A stretch of 64,000 nt of DNA. Source: Ignavibacteriota bacterium. GTDB lineage: Bacteria > Bacteroidota > Ignavibacteria > Palsa-1295. A model generated the notes under the pieces. The model searched no databases, was not told the DNA's origin, and saw only the letters and a program-made list of their open reading frames with translations. The stretch covers positions 288,001-352,000 of the forward strand of contig CAWBEI010000004.1 of NCBI GenBank assembly GCA_963787835.1, in the 5' to 3' direction. Shown here in pieces: positions 9,865 through 25,303 of the stretch (the stretch's first letter is position 1; each line of letters starts with the position of its first letter). A program made the position numbers and the translations under genes.

Positions 9865-11985
9865 ATGGCTATGAAACGGTTATTTTTTCTTGTTGCGGTG
9901 GTTACGCTTGCTTTTGGTGGATTGCCGGCTGCGAAGGCACAATGGCAGCCAATGAATGGTAACGGCGGATGCGTGGTCACAAGCTTCGCCGTGAACGGAA
10001 CTAACCTTTTTGCTGGAACGAATGATGGCATTATCCTCTCAACAGATTTAGGCCACAGTTGGACGGTCGTCGATTCCGGTGTGGCGGATAGTAGCGTGAC
10101 CGCACTCGCAATAATCGATTCAACACTTTTTGTTGGAACAGAAGGTGGTGGTTCTCGATCAAATGATACCGGGAACAGCGGGGTAAAGATCGATTTTATT
10201 GGTTTTACTTCGTACGCAGTCATGGGTTCGAACATCTTTGGTGCCGTGGGAAACAGTGTTTGTCGATCGACGGATAAGGGAAAGACATGGACCACCTGTG
10301 GCATAACACAGTTCCCTTACACGGTCTTCGACGGCCATACTGTTTATTCGCTTGCCGCCAGTGGTAATCGACTTTTCGCTGGAACCGAAGCTGGTGTTTT
10401 TCTTTCTTTCGATACTGGAAAAACTTGGGGGACACCTGATGCGCGGCTTCCGGATTCATGCATGCTTCTGAGCATGGTGGTAAAAGGAGGTGTTCTTTAT
10501 GTAGGAACTGATACCAGCGGTATTTGGACTACGCCTGCTGCCTCGACCTTTTGGAACCGCATCGATAACAACCGGGCACCACTTCGCTGGGTAACTGCGC
10601 TCGTTTGGAACGGAAATGAGTTCTGGGCTGGAACGGATAACGGGGTTTTCGTTTCTACCGATATTGGTACAAGCTGGACGTCCCGAAACTCTGGATTGGG
10701 TAATTTACATGTCCAATGCCTGACTTTTGTCGGCTCAACACTTTTTGCCGGAACAAGAGGAAATGGGATATTTAGCTCCATCGATAGCGGCACTACTTGG
10801 GTCTCATGCAATACTGGGGTAACGGGTCTTTACGTCCGTAGTCTTTTTTTTAGCCAGAATACGCTTTTTGCGGGCATGGTCCCAGGAAATAACTATGATC
10901 AAGGAGGGCCTGTACGTTCGACAGATGAGGGAATGAGTTGGACCTGCGTTAGCCCTGGTACTCGGTCGGATAATGTCACAGCTTTCGACACGATTGGCAA
11001 TCATCTCTTGATGGCAACGGTCTTTTCCGGGGTATATTTATCCCAGAACGAAGGCGAATCCTGGTTCTCGGCGGATAGCGGATTGGAAAATAACACTATT
11101 TTCAGCTTTGCGACGATGGGAACATTTGTATTTGCTTCAAGTCTTGAAGGAACGTTCTTGTCTATGGATTCGGGGGCAAGCTGGACTCTTCTCGACTCAG
11201 AGATAAGATATCCCGAGAATTTGGCTGCTATGGCGAGTATTATATTTTTGGGAACCGAGGAGGATGGGGTGTTCCGCTCGATGGATAGCGGCAAACATTG
11301 GTCGCATGTAAATAATGGTTTATCAGATACACTTGTTTTATCCCTAACTACAATCGGCCAAGATTTATTCGCAGGAACAGAAAACGGGGTTTTTCTTTCC
11401 ACCGACAGCGCTAGAACTTGGGAGTCCGTCAGTAATGGTTTACCGGATGGAGTTTATGTCTACCACTTTGCATCGTTTGGAACAAATCTTTTTGCCAGCG
11501 TAGATGGCGGGGTATATTACACAAGTGACTTTGGAGCAAATTGGATATCGGTTAGTGATGGATTACCATCCGAATTGACCTATGAAGGAGGTGTCCAGTA
11601 TTTCGCGATTGATAGCACCTACCTCTTTGCTGGGTATGCTACAGAATATGGCGCTGCTAGCGGTATTTATCGTCGCCCTCTTTCCGAAATGGTAAATACC
11701 AACGCTGTCGTTGCCGAATCAGAAGTCCATTCTTCCTTCTCCACCTACCCAAACCCATTCACTCAATCCACAACGATCACTATTTCGCCAACCGAAAGTG
11801 GTATAACGGGAATATCAGTTGTGAACCTTTTAGGCCAGGAAGTTGCGCGGATTTATGATGGCGAGTTAAGTGTCGGCGAGCACACCTTCACGTGGAATGC
11901 AAGCAACATGCCGCCGGGAATGTACGAATGTATCGTGCGAATGAATGGGCGAATGGAGCAGCAACCAATAGTTGTGATGCGATAA
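9865..11985 (+). CDS. Secreted BNR/Asp-box beta-propeller protein with T9SS type A C-terminal domain
   Basis: Signal peptide; many LFAGT..GV..SxDxGxxW repeats; C-terminal YPNPFTQSTTI...VVNLLGQEV...PGMYEC. Confidence 0.9.
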   Translation: MAMKRLFFLVAVVTLAFGGLPAAKAQWQPMNGNGGCVVTSFAVNGTNLFAGTNDGIILSTDLGHSWTVVDSGVADSSVTALAIIDSTLFVGTEGGGSRSNDTGNSGVKIDFIGFTSYAVMGSNIFGAVGNSVCRSTDKGKTWTTCGITQFPYTVFDGHTVYSLAASGNRLFAGTEAGVFLSFDTGKTWGTPDARLPDSCMLLSMVVKGGVLYVGTDTSGIWTTPAASTFWNRIDNNRAPLRWVTALVWNGNEFWAGTDNGVFVSTDIGTSWTSRNSGLGNLHVQCLTFVGSTLFAGTRGNGIFSSIDSGTTWVSCNTGVTGLYVRSLFFSQNTLFAGMVPGNNYDQGGPVRSTDEGMSWTCVSPGTRSDNVTAFDTIGNHLLMATVFSGVYLSQNEGESWFSADSGLENNTIFSFATMGTFVFASSLEGTFLSMDSGASWTLLDSEIRYPENLAAMASIIFLGTEEDGVFRSMDSGKHWSHVNNGLSDTLVLSLTTIGQDLFAGTENGVFLSTDSARTWESVSNGLPDGVYVYHFASFGTNLFASVDGGVYYTSDFGANWISVSDGLPSELTYEGGVQYFAIDSTYLFAGYATEYGAASGIYRRPLSEMVNTNAVVAESEVHSSFSTYPNPFTQSTTITISPTESGITGISVVNLLGQEVARIYDGELSVGEHTFTWNASNMPPGMYECIVRMNGRMEQQPIVVMR

Positions 11986-11986
11986 C

Positions 11987-12214
11987 TTACCGTTCCCGAA
12001 AGGAAGCCATGTATTTGGGGAGATCATAGATGGAATCCTCTTCGGCATACCCTTTCATAAAGGCTTCGTACTCTCCTCGGCGGACTTCACTATCGTCTTC
12101 GTGAACAGGGGGCAGAATGATCACCTTCACCTTTTCGCCCGTATGAAACGGCAGGTGATCGAGATGAAGCTCGCCCTCTCGGCGAATGATGGTTTCGGTA
12201 CTGAATGTCTGCAT
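11987..12214 (-). CDS. Small AbrB/antitoxin-like protein
   Basis: MQTFSTETIIRREGELHLDHLPFHTGEKVKVIIL with an acidic tail (EEDSIYD). Confidence 0.6.
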   Translation of the reverse strand: MQTFSTETIIRREGELHLDHLPFHTGEKVKVIILPPVHEDDSEVRRGEYEAFMKGYAEEDSIYDLPKYMASFRER

Positions 12215-12260
12215 GATTTTACTAACAAGAAACGCCGGATGCCGTTCCATAACGAGAACC

Positions 12261-12947
12261 TTACGTCAGCCGCCGCAGTCCCAGCCGGTGCATGGTTCCC
12301 TGCTTGGCGTCGTGGCGGCGGAAGAGAAAGGTGAGTACCACGCCGGTAAAAAATCCCCCGATGTGGGCCATGTACGCGATGCCGCCTCCGGTAGTGCCGG
12401 CATTTTCATACTGCGACGTCCAGCCGGAGAGGAGTTGTGTAACGATCCACAATCCCAGCACGAACTCCGCCTGCATATTGACGATGAATGGAAAAAAGAT
12501 GAGCACGCGAACCCGGTTGTGCGGGAACAGAATCAGATATGCTGCCAGCACACCCGCAATAGCTCCGGAAGCGCCGAGGTTCGGTATGTGGGAATCCGGC
12601 ATGGCATACGTTTGCGCCAGCATCGCAGCAATGCCGCATGTGAAATAAAAGATGATGTATTTAAATTTCCCGAGATTATCCTCGACATTATCGCCAAAGA
12701 CGTATAGATACAGCATGTTCCCAAAGATATGCGCCACGCCGCCATGCAGGAACATCGAGGTGATGACCGTATAAAATGGCTGACGTCCCGCGATGAAATC
12801 CGCCGGGATCAGTGAATACTGATGGACGAAATCATTCCCGCCGGACAGTTCCAGCAGATACACCAGAACATTGATGGCGATGAGAGCCGTCGTTACGACG
12901 GGATAGGAAACTCGCTGGCTGTTGTCGTCACCAAGAGGGAGCAGCAT
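12261..12947 (-). CDS. Rhomboid family intramembrane serine protease
   Basis: TSMFLHGGVAHIFGNM, FGDNVED, GASGAIAG, AYMAHIGGF. Confidence 0.95.
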   Translation of the reverse strand: MLLPLGDDNSQRVSYPVVTTALIAINVLVYLLELSGGNDFVHQYSLIPADFIAGRQPFYTVITSMFLHGGVAHIFGNMLYLYVFGDNVEDNLGKFKYIIFYFTCGIAAMLAQTYAMPDSHIPNLGASGAIAGVLAAYLILFPHNRVRVLIFFPFIVNMQAEFVLGLWIVTQLLSGWTSQYENAGTTGGGIAYMAHIGGFFTGVVLTFLFRRHDAKQGTMHRLGLRRLT

Positions 12948-12996
12948 AAACTACGATTTACAGGATTTTGCGGATGTTCAGGATGGATTTGGGGGA

Positions 12997-13911
12997 TTAG
13001 TGAGCAGTGGAATCGATGGAGATGAGCGTGAGGGTGCGTTTATCAAACGAATTATCGAGATTTCTGCCAGCGATACGGCGACCGGTTGAAGTTCGTGAAA
13101 TTATGAGTCCGTCTGAGGAACGAATATCCTGCAACTCGTCAGACTGACCCTTGGAGATAAGTTCTCCATCACCGACTTGATAATTCGTTATTTCCGTTTC
13201 AAGTTTGTATTGTCCCGCCTTGCGGTCAGCGGCATCTTGATGAATAGAATAATCGTTGTGGTATGAATTGTAATTTTGGCCAGCAGGTTTCTGGTTCGGA
13301 GAGCTTGCAGTGTGGGTTAAGTAAAAAGTATGAGGATGGGAGATCTTAGTTGAACTATCCTGCCATTTCACTCCTGCTCGAACCTCTGATTTGATTGGTC
13401 TCGTGCTAAGTAATTGCGACATCCCAGAAATGATTGCTACGCTGTCCGGTGGTGCTTTAGCCAAATTTTTGGGATCCTTCCACCCTATTTGGTTCAAACT
13501 GTCCTGTGGAGAGCGGTGCAATATCTCGCCGCTCAGGTACCTTCCATACCGATCCACTTTTACTCGATATAGGGGAATTTGCAAAGTAAGCCCACCCTGA
13601 GTTACTCCTTCGCCACCATCTCCGCCTTTAAAATCGTGCGTTTCTTCATTTTGGATGACAAGCGTTGCGTTGTCAAGTGAATCAACGTTCTCGACCGTAA
13701 TATGAATATCCTCTATCCGATCCCAATTGTGTTCCATTAGACCGGGCGGATTATCCGGATTGCGGAATTCATCGATCTTCTTGTAATGCAAAACTTCCCC
13801 CGCCTTAAAATGATACGCAAGATCAACCGGTGCCGGTGAAGTGGCCTGCCCGAACGCCACCGAAGCAGGGAATCCCAGTACCACGATTATCAGGATGTTG
13901 CGGATGTTCAT
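12997..13911 (-). CDS. Secreted tandem-array paralog, type A, intact (DUF6263-like start)
   Basis: Signal peptide, then TSPAPVDLAYHFKAG...; ends KRTLTLISIDSTAH. Confidence 0.85.
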   Translation of the reverse strand: MNIRNILIIVVLGFPASVAFGQATSPAPVDLAYHFKAGEVLHYKKIDEFRNPDNPPGLMEHNWDRIEDIHITVENVDSLDNATLVIQNEETHDFKGGDGGEGVTQGGLTLQIPLYRVKVDRYGRYLSGEILHRSPQDSLNQIGWKDPKNLAKAPPDSVAIISGMSQLLSTRPIKSEVRAGVKWQDSSTKISHPHTFYLTHTASSPNQKPAGQNYNSYHNDYSIHQDAADRKAGQYKLETEITNYQVGDGELISKGQSDELQDIRSSDGLIISRTSTGRRIAGRNLDNSFDKRTLTLISIDSTAH

Positions 13912-13926
13912 GATGGATTTTTTGGA

Positions 13927-14848
13927 TTAATGAGCGGTGGAATCGATGGAGATGAGCGTGAGGGTGCGTTTCAAATATAACTTACCAACATCACCCATTC
14001 CTCCAATTGGCCGATCCATTTGAGTACGGGCAGGTCGTGAGTCCGTCAGATGAGCGAATGTGTTCATCTTCATCGTTAAGTCCTTTAGAAAGAAGCATCC
14101 CATCTGACACTTGGTAGTGGGTACATTGTGTCGCCAGATCAAATGTTCCTGCATTTCGATCTTTCCCATTTTGCTTAACGACATAGTCATAACGGTCTGC
14201 ATTGTAGCTTGGTTTGGGAGCGGGTTGATCCTCTGCGGGGCTTGCGGAATGATCCAACGCGTAGTGTATTGTATGGGAATGTTGACTGGAACTATCTATC
14301 CATTTCGCACCTATCTGCACTCCATTTCTTGCGGGCCTCGGACAAAGCACTTCTTGAAAATCGAGTTTGATCCTTGAGCTGTCTGGCATTGCCCATCCAT
14401 TATAGTTTGGATCTTTCATCTGTTCGTGAAAGAGACTATCCTAAGGCGAGCGTCGCAACATCTCACCTCTAAGATATTTTCCAAAACGATTAATCGTTAC
14501 GCGATAAAGAGGAATGTCCTGAGCAAGTCCGCCCTGGGTTACACCAGTAGGATCATCTCCACCCTTGAAATCGTACGATTCCGTGTTCTGTATAACAAGA
14601 GTTGCGTCGCCGATAGAATCAACTTTTTCAACAGAAATGTCAACATTCTCCTTTACGTCAAAATTTTCTTCCTGATAACCTCCTGGATTATCCGGGTTCC
14701 GCATCTCATCCAGGCGCTGATAATGCAAAACTTCCCCCGCCTTAAAATGATATGCAAGATCAACCGGCGCCGGTGAAGTGGACTGCCCGAACGCCAGTGA
14801 GGCGGGGAATACCAGAACCACGATTATCAGGATGATGCGGATTTTCAT
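13927..14848 (-). pseudogene. Tandem-array paralog, type B, disrupted
   Basis: In-frame TAG at 14443-14441 where the paralogs have Gln (S-P/S-Q-D-S), plus one extra base near 14035; same N- and C-terminal motifs as the other copies. Confidence 0.8.
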
Positions 14849-14863
14849 GATGGATTTTTTGGA

Positions 14864-15793
14864 TTAATGAGCGGTGGAATCAATGGAGATCAGCGTAAGG
14901 GTGCGTTTATCAGAGATATTTTCACGATCTTTGTTGATTTTAATTCCGGGCACCGCTTTTTCCAATTGAGTACGCTTTAAGGTAATTCCATCGCTTGACC
15001 GAATTTCCTGATCTTCATCTGTAGTAAACTGCGATAATAATTGCCCTTGCGAAACTTGATAGTTCATCGTTTTCGTAACAAAGTGGTATTTGCCAGCAGT
15101 GCGATCTTCCGCATCCTGAGCGGTCTTATAATCATAATGATGAGAAAAGTAACTTGGAAGTGGTGGAGGCTCCTCTTTCGCAGGTGCGGCCGTGTGATTG
15201 AAATAAACGACATGGTTATGTGAAATCTGGGCCACACTATCCTGCCAGGTTGTACCAATTTGAACTCCTGTTCGAGCAGGTCTCGTCGAAAAGGCCTCGC
15301 CTATAAAAAGATTTATTATGGAACTATCAGTACGCGGTGTAATATTCCATCGTGGGTCTTTCATGTGCTCATGTTCTAAGCTATCTTGCGATGAGTAACG
15401 CAATATTTTCCCGCTAAGATATTTTCCATACCGATCTACGGTGACTCGGTAGAGAGGAATATCTTGTGCGATAATACCCACAGCTTGTTGGAATCCGTTA
15501 TCACCATTTTTGAAATCGTAAGATTCCTCATTCTGGATAACGAGGGTTGCATCCCCAACTGAATCTACTTTTTCAACCGTGATATGAATGTCATCTTTTG
15601 TATCATAATTCCCTTCCATGTAGCCGGGTGGATTATCCGGATTCCGACATTCATCCAGCCGTTGATAATGCAACACGGTTCCCGCCTTGAAATGATACGC
15701 AAGGTCAACCGGCGCCGGTGAAGTGGACTGCCCGAACGCAAGTGAAGCAGGGAACACCAGAACCACGATTATCAGGATGTTGCGGATTTTCAT
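14864..15793 (-). CDS. Secreted tandem-array paralog, type B, intact
   Basis: MKIRNILIIVVLVFPASLAFGQSTSPAPVDLAYHFKAG...KRTLTLISIDSTAH. Confidence 0.85.
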   Translation of the reverse strand: MKIRNILIIVVLVFPASLAFGQSTSPAPVDLAYHFKAGTVLHYQRLDECRNPDNPPGYMEGNYDTKDDIHITVEKVDSVGDATLVIQNEESYDFKNGDNGFQQAVGIIAQDIPLYRVTVDRYGKYLSGKILRYSSQDSLEHEHMKDPRWNITPRTDSSIINLFIGEAFSTRPARTGVQIGTTWQDSVAQISHNHVVYFNHTAAPAKEEPPPLPSYFSHHYDYKTAQDAEDRTAGKYHFVTKTMNYQVSQGQLLSQFTTDEDQEIRSSDGITLKRTQLEKAVPGIKINKDRENISDKRTLTLISIDSTAH

Positions 15794-15808
15794 GATGGAT
15801 TTCTGGGA

Positions 15809-16726
15809 TTAATTAGCAGTGGAATCGATGGAGATGAGCGTGAGGGTGCGTTTCAAGAAGGAATTATCGAGATTTCTGCCAGCGATACGGCGACCGGTTG
15901 AAGTTCGTGAAATTATGAGTCCGTCTGAAGATCGAACGTCTTGCACTTCGTCATCTGTGCCTTTCGAAATAAGTTCTCCTTCAACGACTTGATAATTTGT
16001 TGTTTCCGTTTCAAGTTTGTATTGTCCCGCCTTGCGGTCAGCTGCATCTTGCTCGATAGTGTAATCGTTGTGATATGCTTTATAATTCGGGCCGGCAGGT
16101 TTCTGGTTCGGTGAGCTCGCAGTGTGGTTAAAATAAAATGTAGTTGGATGGGTTATCTTGGTTGAACTATCCTGCCATTTCACTCCTGCACGAACCTCTC
16201 CTTTGGTTGGTCTCGTGCTAAGTAATTGCGTCATTCAGGAGATGATCGATACGCTGTCCGGTGGCGCCTTGGCCAAATTTTTGGGATCCTTATACCCTAT
16301 TTGCCACATGCTGTCCTGTGGAGAGCGGTGCAATATCTCGCCGCTCAGGTACTTTCCATATTTATCCACTTTTACTCGATACAGCGGAATTTCCAAAGTA
16401 AGCCCTCCCTGAGTTACTCCCTCGCCACCATCTCCGCCTTTAAAATCGTGCGTTTCTTCATTATGGATGACAAGCGTTGCATTGTCGAGTGAATCGACGT
16501 TCTCGACGGTAATATGAATATCTTCTATCCGATCCCAATTGTGTTCCATAAGACCGGGCGAATTATCCGGATTGCGGAATTCATCGATCTTCTTGTAATG
16601 CAGCACGGTTCCCGCCTTGAAATGATACGCAAGGTCAACCGGCGCCGGTGAAGTATTCTGTGCAAACACAGTGGAAAATGAAGCAAGCACGATCACACAA
16701 CAAATGCCGATTATTTTCATAGCCAC
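15809..16726 (-). pseudogene. Tandem-array paralog, type A, single nonsense codon
   Basis: In-frame TGA at 16237-16235 where the 12997..13911 copy has Gly (IISGM); otherwise very similar to that copy, but with a different signal peptide. Confidence 0.8.
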
Positions 16727-16766
16727 AAATTCTTAATTCTCAATTCTTAATTGATAATTGAAACAG

Positions 16767-16841
16767 TGGGCATTACAGGGTTCGAACCTGTGACCTTTCG
16801 CGTGTGAGGCGAATGCTCTGGACCAGCTGAGCTAAATGCCC
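16767..16841 (-). tRNA. tRNA-Val(CAC)
   Basis: Reverse complement GGGCATTTAGCTCAGCTGGTCCAGAGCATTCGCCTCACACGCGAAAGGTCACAGGTTCGAACCCTGTAATGCCCA; cloverleaf, anticodon CAC, CCA not encoded. Confidence 0.97.
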
Positions 16842-16953
16842 GGACGTGCCGTATAGCTCGGCTCCTAACTTCTATGCGTTTGGGGTGGTTCCGAACCGAG
16901 CAACGAACTGTAATAGAAATAATTGGTTTATAGAGTCTATAATGATAGGGAAC

Positions 16954-17220
16954 ATGCTTGCTATCGTAGAAGCACATCCACTGCAGGATTTCAAGCTTGC
17001 TCTTACCTTCAATAATGGCAAGAGCGGGACGGTGGATCTTGCCAAAATTTCCCGAACCGGCGTGTTCGAAGCCTGGAACGACCCATCCTTTTTTCGGAAA
17101 GTGTTCGTTCATCCCGAATTCAGAACCGTCACCTGGCCCGGCGATCTGGATCTCGATCCTTATGTGCTCTATGCCCAAATGACAGGAAGTTCCATTGAGG
17201 AAGTGTTGGCGAGTGTCTAA
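16954..17220 (+). CDS. DUF2442 family putative antitoxin
   Basis: LALTFNNGKSGTVDL...GVFEAWNDPSFFRKV...TVTWPGDLDLDPYVLY; start 16942 or 16954. Confidence 0.88.
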   Translation: MLAIVEAHPLQDFKLALTFNNGKSGTVDLAKISRTGVFEAWNDPSFFRKVFVHPEFRTVTWPGDLDLDPYVLYAQMTGSSIEEVLASV

Positions 17221-17222
17221 CG

Positions 17223-17483
17223 ATGCCTGAAATTTCTCGATTCTTTGGCATCGTCGTTCTCCTAAATTACAACGATCATACTCCTCCGCATTTTCATGCG
17301 CTGTCCGGCGATGAAGAAATTTTGGTTGGCATTAACGATCTTCAAATAATTCGTGGCAGCATGTCCGCGCGCAATACACGTCTTGTGATGAAGTGGGCTG
17401 CGCTCCATAAGGAGGAATTAGTGCATGCCTGGAATGAGGCACAAGCGCATCATGTGCCCGGTCGAATTGAGCCGTTGCATTGA
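17223..17483 (+). CDS. DUF4160 family putative toxin
   Basis: MPEISRFFGIVV..YNDHTPPHFHA...WAALHKEEL..AW...IEPL. Confidence 0.92.
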   Translation: MPEISRFFGIVVLLNYNDHTPPHFHALSGDEEILVGINDLQIIRGSMSARNTRLVMKWAALHKEELVHAWNEAQAHHVPGRIEPLH

Positions 17484-18701: not shown

Positions 18702-18732
18702 TTGCTTCTGGGATTTTTCTGTTGTATCTTTG
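18702..18732 (+). promoter_or_regulatory. Bacteroidota-type housekeeping promoter (-33 TTG / -7 TAnnTTTG)
   Basis: TTG at 18702, 20-nt spacer, TATCTTTG at 18725-18732, upstream of the giant fibre gene. Confidence 0.55.
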
Positions 18733-18889
18733 TAGAAGTTTAGTGGATTCAGGTAAGCCCGATGGATCATTTTGTCTATTTGTCTATGCCCGAATCCGGC
18801 ATTTAAGTTTAGTTAGCGGAGGGGTTTTATTAGTTTGCTTCTATCAGAATCCCCTTGGTGTACTTTTTAACGCTTCACATTCTATTACT

Positions 18890-25303
<6,414 letters not shown>

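Follow-up and report, generated by a model that had tools for sequence, protein, structure and literature searches.

Results and Discussion

Organisation of the locus

The window, that is the whole 64,000-nucleotide stretch analysed here, comes from the genome (G000) of a bacterium found in soil samples and encodes a predicted exported protein in four adjacent copies. They form four minus-strand units arranged head-to-tail with a spacing of 937, 945 and 930 nt, beginning 40-46 nt after a tRNA-Val(CAC) gene, which confirms the original prediction of four units of ~930 bp next to tRNA-Val. In order of transcription, the locus comprises the following genes.

16766..16841, minus strand: tRNA-Val(CAC); the gene family lies directly behind this tRNA in every genome of the genus with a close member
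15809..16726, minus strand: unit 1 (U1); A-type core behind an ordinary signal peptide (MKIIGICCVIVL...); frame interrupted by a TGA at 16235-16237, with an ATG directly after it
14864..15793, minus strand: unit 2 (U2); intact, 309 aa, repeat-derived signal, B-type core
13927..14848, minus strand: unit 3 (U3); third type (C), TAG at 14441-14443, +1 frameshift at a CCC run near 14028-14030
12997..13911, minus strand: unit 4 (U4); intact, 304 aa, repeat-derived signal, A-type core
12261..12947, minus strand: rhomboid protease gene, the downstream flank of the array

U1 and U4 are an old pair (88 % identity, dS 0.39, dN/dS 0.19); the one lesion in this pair is that of U1, which is probably a recent pseudogene. 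The A-type core of U4 is furthermore 79 % identical to the homologous protein P0001, while the U2 core reaches 66 % identity to P0002 of another assembly. U2 and U3, previously regarded as one type (B and B'), share only 53 % core identity compared to 46-49 % with U1 and U4, their synonymous sites are saturated and they occupy separate positions in the tree. We therefore distinguish three old types in the order A, B, C, A', and the idea of one live copy per type fails.

The lesions in U1 and U3 and the intact state of U2 and U4 are present in the assembly as described before, and we checked the stop codons on short-read contigs. The U1 TGA is matched without any difference by a 219-nt contig (run X1, depth 3.7), whereas the only contig covering the U3 TAG (run X2, depth 2.1) reads CAG, its sole difference in 255 nt, and this TAG is not secure as a true stop. 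The U3 frameshift lies outside all short-read contigs; across this site, a separate but noisy copy (L013) is of equal length. L013 belongs to a Verrucomicrobiae MAG (95 % match) and was considered as a case of gene transfer, but the insert measures 527 bp, is rich in indels and lies close to the end of its contig, and a chimeric read is more likely. Most other short-read differences and joints proved to be U4 or U1 pieces placed on the wrong unit of a reference that had been cut, and only the one at 14443 was kept. Stop-codon recoding was dismissed as well, as there was no selA match, selB matches stayed below the cut-off and no Sec/Pyl tRNA was called at default settings; two SeC-like tRNA calls appear only at a lowered threshold.

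A dispersed repeat behind the junctions

The stop-to-start spacers measure 15 nt as predicted, and the junctions are 79-87 % alike over 118 nt. Four near-identical junctions had been expected, which holds for their likeness, but the last one (12949-12990) is without a start, as it has CTG for ATG and keeps an in-frame TAA. Reading the junction as specific to the array missed that it is a genome-wide repeat now encoding signal peptides: it consists of a 42-bp dispersed repeat with 35 copies elsewhere in G000. An HMM built from 8 non-array copies and run on G000 and on its reversed genome gave 54 matches at E<=1 and 39 at E<0.01 in the former, all four junctions among them, and 0 in the latter. 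The array holds four copies, here called arms.

15761..15803, minus strand: repeat arm 1 (HMM E 9.4e-08), behind the U1 stop; gives the ATG and the n/h region of the U2 signal
14816..14857, minus strand: repeat arm 2 (HMM E 1.1e-05); start and n/h region of the U3 signal
13880..13920, minus strand: repeat arm 3 (HMM E 4.1e-05); start and n/h region of the U4 signal
12949..12990, minus strand: repeat arm 4 (HMM E 4.3e-10); plain non-coding DNA with CTG and an in-frame TAA, located between the stop of U4 and the start of the rhomboid gene

Comparable repeat classes are REP/REPIN and MITE-like repeats as well as GxxExxY (TIGR04256) elements with inverted arms. Like the first two, the repeats are short and intergenic, occur singly or as inverted pairs (five pairs in G000 with members within 300 nt) and often abut stop codons. 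Unlike them, a single arm does not form a hairpin on its own (fold z 1.3), and the gene associated with it encodes neither a RAYT nor a DDE transposase. A gene-bearing form is found in relatives: in G014 the repeat brackets a TIGR04256 gene, with an inverted arm upstream (E 1.6e-7) and arms downstream (E 7.7e-11 and 5.2e-9), and in G006 such a gene is weakly bracketed (E 0.004 and 0.0067), giving one clear and one weak case among the 14 GxxExxY loci examined. Judged from this inverted bracketing at the sequence level, the junction repeat is an arm of a GxxExxY-nuclease element. None of the three GxxExxY genes of G000 has arms of this subfamily, and none of the papers listed by a full-text literature search on GxxExxY deals with such elements by title or abstract. 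Rfam gave no structured RNA at the junction, the tRNA being the only match, scans for promoters and terminators did no better than chance, and a search of viral contigs gave no repeat-type start.

Probable recruitment of the arm as a signal peptide

In U2-U4 the arm supplies the ATG together with the basic and hydrophobic part of the predicted signal. All five first-position copies with DNA context (G000, G002, G008, G010 and L012) have an ordinary signal peptide, and in single-copy relatives the arm is non-coding DNA just 3' of the stop. In G002, the arm follows the stop of a single gene whose signal is ordinary (E 3e-15), and G006 retains a deletion scar, in which the signal start is fused to STAH-stop, together with the arm (E 4e-16). 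The reading frame of the repeat points the same way: among 33 non-start rows, one of which duplicates its neighbour, the codon that is ATA in U2-U4 is a stop in 23, and the start Met is present in none.

Repeat-type starts also occur in five proteins from three other contigs, with K, Q or I at the ATA codon. A mis-called extension of P0009 (NAPSRSSPSI) corresponds to the +1 frame of the preceding unit's end, and P0009 is therefore a downstream copy too; apart from P0009, the gene order on the contigs of P0001/P0007/P0009 and P0002/P0012 was deduced. In P0001, P0004 and P0009 the repeat-type start is joined to an ASSSLAFAQ end, which is also found in P0003 with its ordinary signal. Over 22 codons, the recruited peptide shows dN of 0.02-0.09 compared to dS of 0.28. 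The U2-U4 signals have a net charge of +1 to +2, a best 8-residue hydropathy of 3.6-4.3 and an LAFG/Q or VAFG/Q end, that is A-x-G/Q, and contain no Cys. By simple rules based on charge and hydrophobicity, they would qualify as Sec signals with a basic n region, a hydrophobic h region and an A-x-A-type site.

The ancestral layout comprises tRNA-Val, one gene with an ordinary signal and one arm 5-6 nt behind its stop. This arm, matching the inverted arms around the GxxExxY gene of a relative, reads I-R-K-I-L-stop-I-V-V in one frame, basic and then hydrophobic. A tandem duplication may have joined the outer end of the arm to the middle of the old signal (ATCGTGGTT versus ATCGTGCTT), so the new copy would have lost its own start, and a new one could have arisen when CTG became ATG and the in-frame TAA disappeared. 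Sequence comparison thus suggests a repeat-to-signal-peptide recruitment that is well polarised within an ordinary birth-and-death tandem array.

This duplication junction is not recent, and chance could account for the short match with the signal of U1.

Protein family and predicted fold

No sequence match was obtained in Pfam, NCBIfam or the PDB. The first structure model (U4, pLDDT 72), which the Foldseek search of the PDB covered, and the second (U2, pLDDT 88) both rank lipovitellin (1LSH) first (Z 13.5, rmsd 3.8, 205 aligned residues; Z 13.0, rmsd 4.3, 207 aligned residues), followed by ApoB, vitellogenin, 9jg8_A and MTP at Z 10-12, porins at Z 9-9.8 and LolA-like chains at Z 8-9.6, all fold matches being at 8-12 % sequence identity. 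The models predict an open antiparallel sheet of ~11 strands with central helices, resembling an open barrel closed by helices, and the family as a whole conserves its first and last strands. The N-terminal barrel of the large lipid transfer proteins (lipovitellin 1LSH, ApoB 9BD1, vitellogenin 9ENR and MTP 8EOJ; Z 10-13.5) appears here as a stand-alone 280-residue domain, its likeness to them, to LolA and LolB and to DUF6263 being one of predicted fold.

An envelope protein, perhaps with a LolA- or DUF6263-like fold, had been proposed. This is a fair lead. None of 40 members reached the gathering cut-off of DUF6263 (PF19777; best E 0.039, 14 bits compared to 26.7); in one Atlas cluster at 0.91, DUF6263 is annotated on 17 % of the members. 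The product is predicted to be a Sec-exported periplasmic open barrel similar to the N-terminal barrel of lipovitellin and MTP or to LolA. Going by the models, it would most likely bind lipid, another hydrophobic ligand or a partner protein, which is the weak step of our interpretation. A shared fold by itself shows no function.

Probable exchange between units and copy number

The ends of the units do not follow their core type, in agreement with the original prediction: AGTVLH stands in U1 and U2, AGEVLH in U3 and U4, and L, D, L and D alternate before KRTL. Informative sites group the units as 14|23 at 94 of 126 sites, as 12|34 at alignment columns 113-143 and as 13|24 at columns 907-909, the permutation test on these site patterns being one that ignores protein constraint. 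Divergence is hence not uniform along the units. The junction blocks are homogenised with dS values of 0.1-0.9, short-block figures that rest on 13-22 codons, whereas the cores are saturated, and identical end runs of 20-51 nt connect units with cores 46-53 % alike. Two blocks are likely exchange tracts.

16604..16654 (U1) and 15674-15724 (U2), minus strand: 51-nt block identical in U1 and U2, coding for the start of the mature protein
15815..15853, minus strand: 3' block, 35-39 nt identical among U1, U3 and U4 (KRTLTLISIDSTA)

P0012 from another assembly furthermore carries a U1-type leader on a different core. Recombination between units is additionally supported by copy numbers of 0, 1, 2 and 4; a comparison across relatives found variation from 0 to 4 within the genus. 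Of 14 loci in the genus, four carry 4, 2, 1 and 1 copies, one carries the scar and nine none, and scans of JGI and GTDB contigs found one locus each. Six genomes of the genus without the family have the rhomboid gene directly after the tRNA. The two copies in G008 are without an arm, yet these genes, ~50 % alike, have 59 identical nt in common at the same N-terminal position of the mature protein; a TAA seemingly inside the G008 match is the boundary between two intact genes.

We consider it likely that the locus represents a tandem array of genes for a predicted exported beta-sheet protein, in which copies 2-4 obtained their start and signal core from the arm of a dispersed nuclease element, while their ends were probably reshuffled by ordinary homologous recombination. 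The near-identical blocks flanking each junction would permit unequal crossing-over or gene conversion, moving old core types and changing copy number, and redundant copies such as U1 beside its 88 % twin U4 may decay.

The original prediction favoured a recombination-driven variable-cassette locus comparable to immunity or surface-antigen arrays. In a dedicated locus of this kind, programmed exchange would switch antigens or immunity proteins, one copy per type being expressed and the pseudogenes acting as silent donors. The mosaic ends would suit such a locus, as would the first-position leader of U1, like that of P0012, on an A-type core, the CAG reading in U3 and one X3 contig joining a U1-type 3' patch to the U4 flank. 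This join was rejected as a proven recombinant, since it is indistinguishable from an assembly chimera across the 39-nt identity, and short-read pieces from four runs agree with the assembly almost everywhere. Change is slow, given the dS of 0.39 between U1 and U4 and the saturated dS between types, of which there are three, not two. The four units all point the same way and are probably transcribed together, and no single expression site stands out. G000 has three tyrosine recombinases, none of them in the window, which gives no match to PF00589. Antigenic variation of the vls/vmp type involves one expression site, silent promoterless donors and rapid segmental conversion, whereas here all units are full genes in one run with old divergence, and no silent copies were found elsewhere in the G000 genome. 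Integron arrays and tRNA islands have an adjacent tyrosine recombinase, attC hairpins or a duplicated tRNA 3' end and unrelated cargo; here all units are paralogs, the last junction does not fold and the tRNA 3' 12-mer is unique. A mobile island at the tRNA was discarded for want of an att duplicate and a local integrase, the GC content being only mildly low (45.7 % compared to 50.1 %). Judged from the sequences, we regard a dedicated switching locus as improbable.

We give similarly little credence to the view that protein constraint on the terminal strands and the signal explains the junctions without any exchange, the broken copies being assembly errors. Family-wide conservation of the first and last strands, the contradicted U3 TAG and the position of the U3 frameshift in a homopolymer speak for it. 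Synonymous sites are homogenised only at the ends, however, a three-codon patch at columns 137-140 and another at 907-909 cut across core type, the U1 TGA is confirmed in short reads and L013 has the same length across the U3 frameshift, which largely refutes this view for exchange and for U1.

It is more doubtful still that the arms remain active, with a GxxExxY-type nuclease cutting or binding them and driving expansion and shuffling of the array: an arm is present at all junctions and its outer end is largely intact, the known 3- and 4-copy arrays have repeat-type starts and a gene-bearing cognate element is present in the genus, but no GxxExxY gene of G000 has this arm subfamily, G008 was homogenised without an arm and the breakpoints that can be seen (columns 143-146 and 902-910) are 70-100 nt away from the arm. 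An equally long shot is the arm as a dual-use module, a site of nuclease-driven amplification and shuffling on the DNA and a ready-made export signal in the protein, with a bacterial, free-standing relative of the N-terminal barrel of animal lipid-transfer proteins as cargo; if true, any gene with an arm behind it could expand into an array of correctly exported variants.

Comparison with known systems and implications

The preferred reading, recruitment of a repeat within an ordinary tandem array, has partial precedents. Tsuru and Kobayashi (2008, PMC2568036) describe the S. aureus lpl cluster as head-to-tail paralogs of exported proteins of unknown function with pseudogenes and copy-number change, recombining homologously at a conserved block of ~80-90 % identity, so that the travelling unit is not the ORF. 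The present array likewise consists of head-to-tail exported-protein paralogs with pseudogenes and a copy number varying among relatives, and it has a conserved DNA block with incongruent histories on its two sides, as seen from site patterns, the dS contrast and P0012. The conserved block of lpl is central and the 3'-intergenic-5' stretch variable, whereas here the junction is conserved and the core variable, the proteins are without a lipobox, with no Cys in the U2-U4 signals, and the junction derives from a dispersed repeat. For Yersinia, a fusion of an RU-2/YPAL repeat in YPO1552 is described by Delihas (2007, PMC2759123; review PMC2229807). Compared with that account, the donor here is a single arm of a GxxExxY-nuclease element, the donor state as well as the ancestral one can still be seen, and recruitment most likely occurred by tandem duplication of the preceding gene and not by insertion, the recruited arm then being copied through the array. 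Literature searches listed no work on exaptation of repetitive extragenic palindromic sequences as signal peptides.

The array dynamics themselves are ordinary. What distinguishes the locus is the change of a non-coding repeat into a protein-targeting signal, for which the donor repeat, the single-gene ancestor, a deletion scar, the parent element and the coding state are all found in one genus. This change would need about two substitutions and suggests a general route, in which a tandem duplication starting inside a signal peptide is rescued by a repeat behind the stop. Owing to its predicted fold match with lipovitellin and MTP, the family may also be a candidate for studying the origin of their N-terminal barrel.

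Array layout and genome setting

A genome search found the protein family at a single locus of the 3.57 Mb, seven-contig genome to which the window belongs (G000; other G-numbers denote genus genomes). The array of four units there is real, and each stop, frameshift and terminal variant listed by the original prediction was recovered in it.

16726-15809, minus strand: U1, behind tRNA-Val(CAC)
15793-14864, minus strand: U2
14848-13927, minus strand: U3
13911-12997, minus strand: U4, with a rhomboid gene next after it

The adjacency of the rhomboid protease gene may be mere neighbourhood. One neighbour gene encodes a C-terminal type IX secretion sorting domain, which would suggest an organism of Bacteroidota type. 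Four runs from a single soil metagenome study contain DNA near-identical to the window. Immediately upstream of the tRNA lies a DUF2442 and DUF4160 gene pair (16942-17483, plus strand), presumably toxin-antitoxin-like, which is probably a recent arrival, as the other 13 genus loci showed no such pair in this position. A short 7-base array (AATTAAG/AATTGAG, 16727-16765) between tRNA and U1, with similar arrays at the same place in the locus L012 and in G001, G006 and G014, may be the arm of another repeat family. The window further encodes a probable surface adhesin of ~2190 aa with 11 collagen stretches and 17 YadA-head repeats (18722-25303, plus strand), which has a homolog at the matching place in G002, and an 87-aa ORF behind the rhomboid gene (11987-12250, minus strand) with a weak RelN-family antitoxin match under the cut-off (E 0.0023). 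Near a contig start, two GTPase matches of equal score and opposite orientation (G000:C2:3467-4279 and 10943-11755) are a possible assembly duplication.

Unit types and interrupted copies

Core identity over U4 residues 45-291 is 88 % for U1/U4 and 53 % for U2/U3, with 46-49 % for the remaining pairs, and synonymous sites are saturated in all pairs but U1/U4 (dS 0.39, dN/dS 0.19). In a 21-row tree of homologous proteins, U1 and U4 join P0001 (support 100/100), U2 pairs with P0002 (support 100/99) and U3 stands on its own. Because of these identities, the saturated dS and the tree placement, the array holds three unit types, two of them also present in other assemblies, and the proposal of one live copy per type fails. 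U1 was probably under purifying selection during most of its past, and its single lesion would fit a recent loss next to a redundant twin.

Short-read contigs bear out one of the two predicted stops: the region of the U1 TGA is matched by a 219-nt contig of run X1 with 0 differences, whereas in run X2 a contig of 255 nt (depth 2.1) has one difference in all, at 14443 in the U3 TAG, giving CAG. As homologs also have Gln at this codon, this leaves a segregating allele or an assembly error as the source of the TAG. No short-read contig spans the U3 frameshift; a noisy 97 % copy within another MAG has the same length as the array across it. Stop-codon recoding is unlikely, since selA was not found in the search and all selB matches were under the cut-off.

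Exchange between units and copy number

While 94 of 126 informative sites group U1 with U4, seven consecutive ones in alignment columns 113-143 set U1 and U2 against U3 and U4, and three in columns 907-909 set U1 and U3 against U2 and U4. The longest common runs of polymorphic sites exceed shuffles, which ignore protein constraint, in five of six pairs (p 0.0002-0.003; U1/U3 p 0.14). The contrast in dS is more telling: it lies at 0.2-0.9 over the 22 codons that open the mature part and at 0.1-0.7 over the final 13 codons, versus a saturated core. The leader of P0012 is almost letter-identical to that of U1, on a core just 43 % like the U1 core. The predicted exchange between units is thus upheld by mosaic sites, low-dS ends and a shared leader on a different core.

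Copy number also differs between relatives, as anticipated. Among the 14 tRNA loci recovered from 15 genus genomes, G000 has four copies, G008 two, G002 and G010 one each, and G006 a deletion scar; the family is absent from the other nine, in six of which the rhomboid gene follows the tRNA. A scan of 60 relatives recovered the close family from G002, G008 and G010 only. A distant subfamily forms a tandem pair behind a CTP-synthase-like gene in G010 (L057:1486-3250, on G010:C11) and occurs as single copies in G008 and G011. End-shuffling is real yet slow and we found no sign of a programmed switch in the array; the proposed variable-cassette locus is not supported. The exchange pattern fits the recombination model published for the S. 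aureus lpl cluster (PMC2568036); unlike there, the conserved block here is the junction.

Protein family and predicted fold

The unit protein has no sequence match in Pfam, NCBIfam or PDB. Of 1.84 billion representatives searched by profile, 35 matched at E<=0.001, ten of them at 1e-30. Models of U4 (pLDDT 72) and mature U2 (pLDDT 88, pTM 0.83) have ~11 antiparallel strands with helices in the centre. Their top structural match is the lipovitellin N-terminal barrel (Z 13.5 and 13.0 for U4 and U2), alongside the N-terminal barrels of ApoB (12.2, 11.3), vitellogenin (11.3, 10.8) and MTP (10.8, 10.1), a type VI cargo-complex chain (10.9, 10.7), LolA-like chains (8-9.6) and porins (up to 9.8). Foldseek returned the same top group (E 1e-5 to 2e-4) at low TM-scores of 0.32-0.40. 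In an Atlas cluster at 0.91, DUF6263 is annotated on 17 % of the members. The suggested LolA- or DUF6263-like fold finds some backing, with lipovitellin-type barrels ranking above the LolA-like chains. Our best guess, as easily wrong as right, is that the protein is soluble in the periplasm and binds lipid or a partner protein. Differences between types are strongest at residues of helices and loops, which would fit differing ligands.

The junction as a dispersed repeat arm

BLAST of the array found short matching stretches on five other G000 contigs. An HMM of this 42-bp arm, trained on eight copies from outside the array, detected 39 copies in G000 at E<0.01, the four junctions included, and none in the reversed genome. 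Copies outside the array are mostly intergenic, often adjoin a stop codon and include five inverted pairs; the strict pattern is present in 4 of 15 genus genomes (control hits 0). The three GxxExxY (TIGR04256) genes of G000 have inverted arms on both sides, similar in build and of other sequence than the junction arm. Arms of the junction subfamily itself flank a GxxExxY gene on both sides in G014 and weakly bracket one in G006 (2 of 14 loci examined). From this bracketing, the junction is a single arm from a nuclease-associated mini-element, probably an orphan in G000. In a Verrucomicrobiae MAG, one contig carries near its end (L013:7912-8438) a copy of the U3/U4 junction that spans 527 bp, is 97 % identical and is rich in indels; it is likely a chimeric read, and yields the spurious database protein P0021.

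That the arm drives exchange in the array is improbable: the two copies of arm-less G008 agree in all 59 nt of a block at the corresponding mature N-terminal position, with ~50 % identity elsewhere, visible breakpoints fall within coding blocks distant from the arm ends, and searches turned up neither a cognate nuclease nor a nearby integrase or att site.

Recruitment of the arm as start and predicted signal peptide

Translated in one frame, the arm gives I-R-K-I-L-stop-I-V-V. Its stop is retained in 23 of 33 non-start rows, and none of the 33 has Met at the start position; in the arms of U2-U4, CTG has become ATG and TAA ATA. The copy behind U4 is still non-coding. The arm lies 6 nt past the stop both in G002, which has one gene with an ordinary signal, and at the G006 scar, so it was in place before the array expanded. 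Past the G002 arm, rhomboid-like first codons run on into a BNR-repeat gene fragment (L009:9750-9900); the rhomboid gene has apparently been lost by a deletion that also reversed part of its surroundings.

All five first-position copies with DNA context have an ordinary signal. The arm-type start is also seen in five proteins from three other contigs. In three of these proteins ASSSLAFAQ follows, the same end as in ordinary-signal P0003, so the join falls mid-signal; the extension of P0009 is a +1 reading of the preceding unit's end, hence P0009 is a downstream copy as well. In the simplest history, a duplication would have fused the end of the arm with the mid-part of the old signal where the two match briefly (8 of 9 bases versus U1), and the two point changes would have come after. 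A second instance of an arm giving a start codon overlaps the GTG of a 128-aa ORF (VVKKTPEEWQ..., G000:C2:1842621-1842664, plus strand), which we take to be MsrB-like.

The new leaders of U2-U4 look like Sec signals in charge and hydropathy, with predicted export, and their dN is low relative to dS (22 codons). A precedent for a repeat inside a predicted signal peptide is Yersinia RU-2, part of that of YPO1552 (PMC2759123, PMC2229807). As read from sequence, the step by which an arm of a nuclease element came to serve as start and predicted signal peptide is well polarised, and is the noteworthy aspect of this locus.
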